A stretch of 64,000 nt of DNA from Escherichia coli (GTDB lineage Bacteria > Pseudomonadota > Gammaproteobacteria > Enterobacterales > Enterobacteriaceae), in the NCBI RefSeq assembly GCF_009931435.1, contig NZ_CP043414.1. The stretch is one strand, 5' to 3'. The notes beneath the pieces are model-generated. The model was given only the letters and a program-made list of their open reading frames with translations, ran no database searches and was not told the origin of the DNA. Of the stretch, positions 627 through 2,088 are shown in pieces; the first letter of the stretch is position 1; each line of letters opens with the position of its first letter. The translations under genes were made by a program, and so were the position numbers.

Positions 627-835
627 GTACCCACAATAACACGAGGGGGTACAACAATGAACATCGGTAAAGCAATCATCAACTACGCAGCGCGTCGCAA
701 CATGGACATTACCTGATTGACGATGAGACCGTGGCGTTCTGGGAAGCGGATAACGATTGTGAATGGATGTTCTCCTACATGATTGGTAATGATGGTTTCC
801 TCCACTTTAAAGGCAATGTGTATCTGCTGTAGTGG

Positions 836-1656
836 TCAACAAAAATTGGCCACGGCTTTAGAGTTTTTCCAGAACAATCGTTCTGATTCATTCGGCGTCA
901 AACCACCGTTATATTGATGAGGTCTGAGCTGGCTGTAATATCCCGTGATGTAGTTTGTTATCGCTGCGCTGGCTTCGCTAAAATTAGCGTATCCATTATC
1001 TGGTACCCACTCCGTTTTCAGGCTTCTAAAAAAACGTTCCATCGGGCTGTTATCCCAGCAATTTCCCCGGCGACTCAGGCTTTGTTTTATCTGATATCTC
1101 CACAGTAACTGTCTGAAATTTCTGCTGGTATAGTGGCTCCCTTGATCCGAGTGATACAGCAAATTAGCGGGCTTTCCTCGCGCTTCCCAGGCCATGGACA
1201 GCGCTTTCGTTGTCAGTGCAGAGTCCGGGAAAAATGACATCGCCCAGCCAACCGGTTTACGGGAAAACAGATCAAGCACAACGGCTAAATAAGCCCAACG
1301 TTTACCCGTCCAGATATAAGTCACATCGCCACACCAGACCTGATTAGGCTCTGTTACTGCAAACACTGGCGTTCAAGATAATTGGGGATCTCTACGTGTT
1401 CCGTAGACGCCTTCTTATATCGATGGCCAGGCTGCTGACAGCTGATGAGATTAAGTTCTTTCATCAGCTTTGTTGCTCGCCAGCGCCTCAGTTTTACGCC
1501 TTTAGTTGTGACCATCGCGGCAATATTACGTGCACCTGCGGAACCATTACTTTCGCGATAGCTTTCACGAACAAGACTGAGTAATGACACGCGCGCGACA
1601 TCAGGCTTCTTTGGCTGCCGCCAGTATTTATAGCTGCTGCGATGAACCCCAAACAC
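836..1656 (-). pseudogene. IS911-like transposase orfB (DDE integrase core), split by a frameshift near 1354-1366
   Basis: Two ORF pieces in different frames (1354-1656 and 836-1366); C-terminal piece reads [37 protein letters not shown]...[10 protein letters not shown]...[15 protein letters not shown], typical of IS3-family OrfB. Could also be a sequencing error. Confidence 0.6.
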
Positions 1657-1700
1657 GTTGCATACAACGGCAACAGGAAACCGCGCCCTGAGTTTCTCAA

Positions 1701-2012
1701 CTAATGAGAACTGTTCAGGGAGTCTGACATCAAGAGCGCGGTAGCCTTTTTTAATATATCCCTTTCCATTTCAACGCGTTGAAGTCTTTTCTTCAGCTCG
1801 CGTATTTCAATCTGCTCAGGCGTCATTGGTGAAGCTGTGGGGGATTTTCCCGCTCGTTCCTCTTTCAACTGGCGGACCCACTTATCCATCGTGGATTTAC
1901 CGACATTCATTGCCGTAGCAGCGGCTGCAACCGTGTAATGCTGATCGAGTACAAGCTGGGCAGCTTCGAGGCGAAACTCTGGGCTAAAATTACGTCTGTT
2001 ACGTCCGGTCAT
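1701..2012 (-). CDS. IS911-like transposase OrfA (HTH and leucine zipper)
   Basis: 103-aa ORF ending ...[38 protein letters not shown], close to IS911 OrfA as recalled. Confidence 0.85.
1746..1752 (-). other. Programmed -1 ribosomal frameshift heptamer A-AAA-AAG near the 3' end of orfA
   Basis: Minus-strand sequence TTA AAA AAG GCT in the orfA frame (the ...ILKKA... codons); the -1 frame is open from here to the stop at 1354, as in the IS911 OrfAB mechanism. Confidence 0.65.
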
Positions 2013-2088
2013 AATGTCACCTGTTTTTGACTATGAGGCGATGATATCACCTCTATTCAGGTGGCCAAATTCAGTGTGCCACTACAGT

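Follow-up and report, generated by a model that had tools for sequence, protein, structure and literature searches.

A transposase-defective IS911-like element at the apparent junction of a 33–35 kb prophage deletion in Escherichia coli

The window, that is, the whole 64-kb stretch of E. coli DNA analysed here, carries near its start a prophage remnant (~621–4919) composed of ~3.0 kb of phage DNA plus an insertion sequence (IS), lying between two fragments of hicB. Its extent was taken from colinearity and from the annotation of E. coli 2020CK-00188, a chromosome-level RefSeq assembly (GCF_018071945.1). From left to right, the remnant contains what is left of the 5' end of the first prophage gene (658–827, plus strand; 273 bp when intact), which is cut by the IS after nt 172, the IS itself (828–2086, minus strand), and the 3' end of a 243-bp prophage gene (2087–2265, plus strand) from near the small-terminase end, of which the first 64 nt are gone. 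According to the 2020CK-00188 annotation, the remnant also keeps the gene for the terminase small subunit (2974–3540, minus strand), an LprI-family gene (3887–4666, plus strand) and two small membrane ORFs.

The IS is a 1259-bp, IS911-like member of the IS3 family with a defective transposase gene. The first-pass annotation had placed it at 828–2086, and an alignment with five relatives ends exactly there. These relatives were the copies on the E. coli chromosomes of RM10410 and strain 550, the intact copy on the Enterobacter plasmid CP057783, a copy on a Rahnella sikkimica plasmid, and the element of E. coli H8, which is intact and 90% identical. The left inverted repeat (IRL; 2061–2086, minus strand) reads TGTAGTGGCACACTGAATTTGGCCAC, the same as the IRL of the intact Enterobacter plasmid copy, and the right one (IRR; 828–853, plus strand), located by the pattern of the ends and the alignment, reads TGTAGTGGTCAACAAAAATTGGCCAC from the outside in. 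Both ends start with TGTAGTGG and have TTGGCCAC in common further inward, and IRL and IRR are identical at 19 of their 26 outermost positions. A degenerate pattern describing the ends gave two matches in the 64-kb window, where chance would give 0.09, and the repeats had thus been correctly described as intact. Imperfect inverted repeats with 5'-TG...CA-3' termini and a length within ~1.2–1.5 kb are as found in the IS3 family.

Inside the element, orfA (1701–2012, minus strand) is intact in the ORF list and encodes a 103-aa DNA-binding protein of the HTH_Tnp_1 type (Pfam PF01527, residues 5–77). The A AAA AAG motif reported earlier is present at 1752–1746 on the minus strand, in the xxA AAA AAG register of orfA (2012–1701), and is invariant in six of the six aligned copies (alignment columns 335–341). 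As judged from the sequence, orfA and orfB lie in frames 0 and −1 with an A6G-type motif for programmed −1 frameshifting, as in other IS3-family elements. A sigma-70-like site, TTGGCC-16-TATCAT (2068–2041), is overlapped by IRL and, by analogy with IS911, is predicted to act possibly as a promoter. Promoter scanning and inspection of the flank found no hybrid outward promoter leading from the IRR end into hicB'/ydcR, and an Rfam scan of window positions 1–7000 gave zero matches. An 83-aa ORF (2014–2265, plus strand) starts at an ATG within the left end of the IS, antisense to the orfA leader, and continues through the inverted repeat into the truncated phage gene without a change of frame; no promoter was found for it. 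When the IS is removed in silico, the left and right gene remnants also share one frame. The ORF reading across the IS left end is probably a coincidence.

The earlier reading of orfB as split near 1354–1366 was borne out by the alignment. In the ORF list, the gene is spread over two frames: its 5' part (1752–1354, minus strand), in the −1 frame relative to orfA, runs into a premature TAA at 1356–1354, and a 176-aa ORF in a third frame (1366–836) bears the catalytic residues. Direct reading of the latter translation identified the D in CGDVTYI, the D in HSDQGS and an E 35 residues further on, and the 3' part of orfB (836–1362), matched by Pfam rve, therefore holds the whole DD(35)E catalytic domain out of frame. 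The lesion is a 2-bp insertion, GTGT at 1363–1366 where five of the five relatives have GT (alignment columns 723–724), which shifts orfB. As encoded, OrfAB is a protein of 219 aa with the C-terminus QCLQ*; with the 2 bp taken out, it becomes a 391-aa protein with no further stop. Since Pfam rve covers residues 220–318 of the repaired OrfAB (E = 7.5e-30), the encoded product halts right where the DDE domain would start, and the fusion protein lacks that domain, as had been predicted. A weak match to HTH_21 was also found in OrfAB (E = 0.0013).

Against NF033516, the NCBIfam model of IS3-family transposases, the truncated OrfAB scored 138 bits and the repaired one 373 bits (cut-off, 160 bits), the repaired protein spanning 368 of the 369 model positions as a DDE (rve) transposase of IS3 type. 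Because the 219-aa product falls below the cut-off, the transposase gene is a pseudogene and, as it is otherwise intact, its inactivation appears to have been recent. The IS of 2020CK-00188 is 100% identical, including the 2-bp insertion, and is labelled 'IS3 family transposase, frameshifted' in RefSeq, so that an IS copy of the window type is already flagged there as a frameshifted pseudogene. Over 6,086 bp, the window and 2020CK-00188 differ by two SNPs, neither of which lies in the IS; the lesion is therefore seen in two non-identical sequences, possibly from the same or a clonal isolate. In its predicted domain content, with HTH_Tnp_1 and the weak HTH_21 kept and the catalytic domain missing, the 219-aa product resembles OrfAB[149], which PMC1636345 describes as a derivative engineered for studies of end binding and synapsis. 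The window product differs from it in being natural in origin, longer and a prediction.

On nucleotide comparison, the element is IS911-like and not IS911 itself. Aligned with a RefSeq-annotated IS911 copy in strain RMDEC332, it was related, with 71.6% nucleotide identity over 1271 aligned columns. By ISfinder convention, isoforms share roughly at least 95% nucleotide identity; an IS911 isoform is thus ruled out, 71.6% being far from the near-identity needed. Its OrfB is about 73–74% identical in amino acids to proteins named IS911 family. The element shares with IS911 a length of ~1.25 kb, TG...CA ends and very similar inverted repeats, as well as orfA and orfB in the −1 frame, an A AAA AAG site, a DD(35)E transposase and, in sibling copies of the window IS, 3-bp duplications. 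It differs in length (1259 bp, compared with 1249 bp for the RMDEC332 copy) and in that the window copy has a broken orfB and no duplication.

The nearest intact relative is a 1257-bp copy on an Enterobacter IncFII plasmid (L010), with 96.9% identity, followed by the Rahnella sikkimica plasmid copy (L011; 93.6%) and by a 1256-bp element, 90% identical, that is widespread on replicons of Klebsiella, Enterobacter, Salmonella and E. coli. Source annotations gave just generic 'IS3 family transposase' names and no ISfinder-style name. All six full-length E. coli copies that are at least 99% identical are either pseudogenes by annotation or the same in sequence as a copy so annotated. The copies of RM10410 and strain 550 have a CGA-to-TGA stop in common, and that of strain 550 carries in addition a 2-bp insertion of its own. 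These two copies (L002, 3001–4257, and L003, 3001–4259, respectively) have the same right flank, beside an L-lactate permease gene, and different left flanks with no duplication, which makes them a further example, within this IS lineage, of a copy that is rearranged and dead.

An insertion of an IS3-family element is usually bordered by a 3–4 bp target-site duplication, and none borders the window copy. The triplets next to the IS are TGC (825–827) and GTA (2087–2089), which differ at all three positions. The first-pass annotation had called this difference unexpected for a simple insertion, and the siblings agree: 3-bp duplications flank two sibling copies, GAA at L009 and GTC at L010, and the true IS911 of RMDEC332 (L012) has a 3-bp ATA duplication. 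Because sibling copies do make 3-bp duplications, their absence here is informative, and reflects the history of the window copy and not a property of the family. The boundaries cannot be re-placed in such a way as to give a matching repeat of 3–4 bp, since the five-relative alignment fixes the ends; shifting them by 1–2 bp revealed no hidden repeat. IS copies without duplications have been attributed to recombination between ISs or to adjacent deletions (PMC11708052).

That the two sides of the IS are opposite ends of a prophage was revealed by a search with the flanks joined without the IS. No such junction was found in the 5,426 complete E. coli genomes (0/5,426) or in the phage collection; the two halves of the query matched separately, in most cases both within a given genome. 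The intact prophage measures ~38 kb (34–38 kb in strains 14EC029 and 14EC017), lies inside hicB, adjoining ydcR, and in these two strains includes genes for a large serine recombinase, tail, capsid, portal and terminase. These two prophages served as the related strains with an intact locus envisaged at first pass. Window positions 1–827 are colinear with 3071–3898 of the 14EC017 locus (L008) and positions 2097–5050 with 38822–41779, and window 827 and 2087 correspond to L008 3898 and 38812, respectively. In L008 the two flank sites are 34,913 bp apart. Part of this distance is made up by an IS1 and an IS421 peculiar to 14EC017, and the loss is therefore roughly 33–35 kb. The sites also lie at opposite prophage ends in 14EC029, ES2 and ETEC1739.

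With a stroke marking the site, the intact left site reads ...tatctgc/CGCAGGATATT and the intact right site ...ATGAAAGAGC/gtatgg (ETEC1739); in the window, the left junction is GTGTATCTGC/TGTAGTGGTCAAC and the right junction GTGCCACTACA/GTATGGCTAAG. Divergence from the intact sequence begins exactly at the IS tips on both sides, so that flanks not contiguous in the intact prophage meet at breakpoints that coincide with the IS termini, as in an IS deletion scar. The phage DNA of the remnant is colinear with both prophage ends, to which it is 93–98% identical, and lies between hicB fragments; the prophages of 14EC029 and 14EC017 occupy this attachment site too. The 64-kb window holds the missing segment at no other position, and its remainder is colinear with the chromosome. 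Judging from these alignments, the IS sits at the junction of a 33–35 kb prophage deletion. The first-pass suggestion that an IS-mediated event may explain the truncated genes on both sides is supported: both genes are cut at the IS tips. The left one also has an additional 1-bp deletion, unrelated to the IS. This deletion, at 713/714 (ACC-TGATTG, where relatives have ACCTTGATTG), frameshifts the remnant of the first prophage gene, which was consequently hit twice.

Other differences were noted around the prophage. In RMDEC332, the true IS911 (L012, 4905–6153) lies in the same arm of a hicB prophage, with the first gene on one side and the serine recombinase gene on the other, and in the orientation of the window IS; it is an independent IS911-type insertion into the hicB prophage family. 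Close serine-recombinase prophages sit in hicB or in ycdX depending on the strain (ETEC1739, L005, and ES2, L007, as against L006 and L008, the hicB prophages of 14EC029 and 14EC017). The right flank of the window is 96.7% identical to a ycdX-integrated prophage and 95.1% to hicB-integrated ones, and this slightly closer match suggests mosaicism within the hicB/ycdX phage group. Compared with 14EC017 (L008, 41780–42223), the window has cleanly lost 444 bp at 5050/5051; the deletion, with a 1-bp microhomology (G) and no associated IS, takes hicA and the 5' part of hicB, leaving only an internal hicB fragment (~4920–5048); hicAB has thus been destroyed twice, by the prophage integration and by this separate deletion. 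At 9382/9383, the window is without the ~1.7-kb insQ/tnpA element (IS200/IS605-type) that is present between ydcO and ydcL in 14EC029 (L006, 40138–41885).

The first-pass annotation had offered two origins for such a junction, adjacent deletion mediated by the IS and recombination of one copy with another, and this pair of routes is supported by flanks that lie 34.9 kb apart in 14EC017 and by breakpoints at the IS termini. That the IS mediated the deletion by one or the other is very likely. The sequence comparisons show how the IS is built, the lesion in orfB, the lack of a duplication, flanks that are not contiguous and how much DNA is missing; what we infer comprises the IS as the cause of the deletion, the route from one copy, and the order of deletion and frameshift. 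For an adjacent deletion from a single copy, the explanation we favour, the chances appear about even. Under this route, the IS911-like element would have inserted once into the ~38-kb serine-recombinase prophage in hicB, making a 3-bp duplication, and one IS end, with the transposase still working, would then have attacked a second site some 33–35 kb off in the same prophage. Such an event would have taken out the genes for integrase, lysis, tail, head, portal and large terminase, and would have left one IS copy with its original flank on one side and new DNA on the other, and hence no matching duplication. Because the deletion would have needed the transposase, the 2-bp insertion that cuts OrfAB at residue 219, before the DDE domain, would have come later. 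The progenitor is predicted to have carried the IS either at the left site, flanked by duplicated TGC, with the junction GTGCCACTACA/TGCCGCAGGATAT, or at the right site, flanked by duplicated GTA, with the junction ATGAAAGAGCGTA/TGTAGTGGTCAAC.

Several observations point to the adjacent deletion: the exact coincidence of both breakpoints with the IS termini, the loss from the window of the segment that separates the flank sites in 14EC017, the lack of IS-free joined flanks among the 5,426 genomes, and the 3-bp duplications that sibling copies make and the window copy lacks. In addition, megablast of the 2020CK-00188 chromosome found only one place similar to the window IS, which makes the one-copy route more economical: two insertions within 35 kb, with none in other parts of the chromosome, fit this less well than one insertion followed by an intramolecular event. 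The closest documented parallel is IS150, another IS3-family element, for which 14 of 14 deletions in the long-term evolution experiment adjoined a pre-existing copy (PMC11708052). As in the window, the element is kept at the junction of a large deletion, with no target-site duplication; there, however, the earlier copy was observed at prior time points, whereas the route in the window is deduced. The same paper cites evidence that a fusion of orfA and orfB in IS3 raises the rate of adjacent deletions.

Other points weigh against the adjacent deletion. Its product in sequence would be identical to that of homologous recombination between two direct copies, and the present copy makes no transposase, so that the deletion must be assumed to have come first. 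The main transposition pathway of the IS3 family is copy-out/paste-in through a circle and by itself deletes no adjacent DNA; one-step adjacent deletion relies on minor pathways described for IS911, IS2 and IS30, namely one-ended attack or tandem-dimer junctions, and these minor pathways would be needed here as well. Moreover, no one-site progenitor turned up in the collections searched. The IS with 400-bp flanks matched 2020CK-00188 alone among the 5,426 complete E. coli genomes, and each 240-bp junction by itself was found in one of the 5,426, 2020CK-00188 both times. Among viral contigs, a degenerate inverted-repeat scan for a progenitor returned 61 loci, none of them with the window flanks. 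In these collections, then, no sequence had the IS at one or both sites with a duplication.

An alternative to the adjacent deletion, possible but somewhat doubtful in our view, is that two insertions in the same orientation, the left one duplicating TGC and the right one GTA, were followed by RecA-dependent recombination between the 1.26-kb copies. This would remove ~33–35 kb together with one IS copy, with no need for transposase at the deletion step, and would therefore work even if the frameshift came first. The product has the expected form, a left flank from one copy and a right flank from its partner, and recombination between ISs is named as a frequent cause of missing duplications (PMC11708052). 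These prophages also gather ISs, with IS911 in the same arm in RMDEC332 and IS1, IS421 and IS3 in 14EC017 and 14EC029. The two insertions would have to fall within 35 kb, however, yet by megablast the matching chromosome has no other copy or relative of the IS, and the genomes searched included none that had two copies or just one of the junctions.

A third reading, which we regard as improbable, is that the IS was captured at a double-strand break of an unrelated large deletion, with no staggered cleavage and never a duplication. Such capture was proposed for an IS5-associated deletion and an IS481-associated duplication (PMC11708052, Ngan et al. 2024), and it is compatible with both the absent duplication and the failure to find a progenitor in the collections searched. 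It is unproven even in those original cases, the IS150 examples in PMC11708052 being ordinary adjacent deletions, and it needs a donor copy elsewhere, of which there is none in the matching chromosome. If true, the window would offer a natural IS3-family example of break-associated IS capture free of a target-site duplication.

Still less probable, and close to refuted, is an IS-independent prophage deletion followed by insertion of the IS at its junction and later erasure of the 3-bp duplication by point mutations: the 444-bp deletion 3 kb away shows that spontaneous deletions occur at the locus without an IS, but TGC and GTA differ at three of three positions although the surrounding flanks are 97–99% identical to relatives, both deletion endpoints would have to match the insertion point by chance, and the IS-free junction occurs in 0 of the 5,426 genomes. 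An artefact, either two IS copies around an intact prophage collapsed in assembly or a base-calling error behind the 2-bp insertion, is just as hard to credit, for even if 2020CK-00188, the only public sequence that matches, may be from the same isolate or from a clonal one, that chromosome-level RefSeq assembly likewise shows this structure with one IS copy, two SNPs set the window apart from it and so the two are not one identical sequence, a dinucleotide insertion in a non-homopolymer context is not a typical error, and the window does not contain the missing segment at any other place.

Whichever route produced the junction, the IS is now best seen as an immobile, fixed scar, because it is unable to make transposase of its own and the matching chromosome has no related copy that could provide it. 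The prophage remnant is without its recombinase and all morphogenesis genes and, from its gene content, would be unable to excise or to form particles. The proposed deletion would account for the fact that hicB holds a 4.3-kb island and not a ~38-kb prophage and for the two gene fragments beside the IS, and the orfB lesion accounts for the 'frameshifted' label given to the transposase in RefSeq. An IS-linked deletion scar is an already known and well-understood phenomenon, and the interest of this one is local. It offers a clean textbook example of prophage decay brought about by an insertion sequence, in which the missing target-site duplication serves as a pointer to rearrangements.
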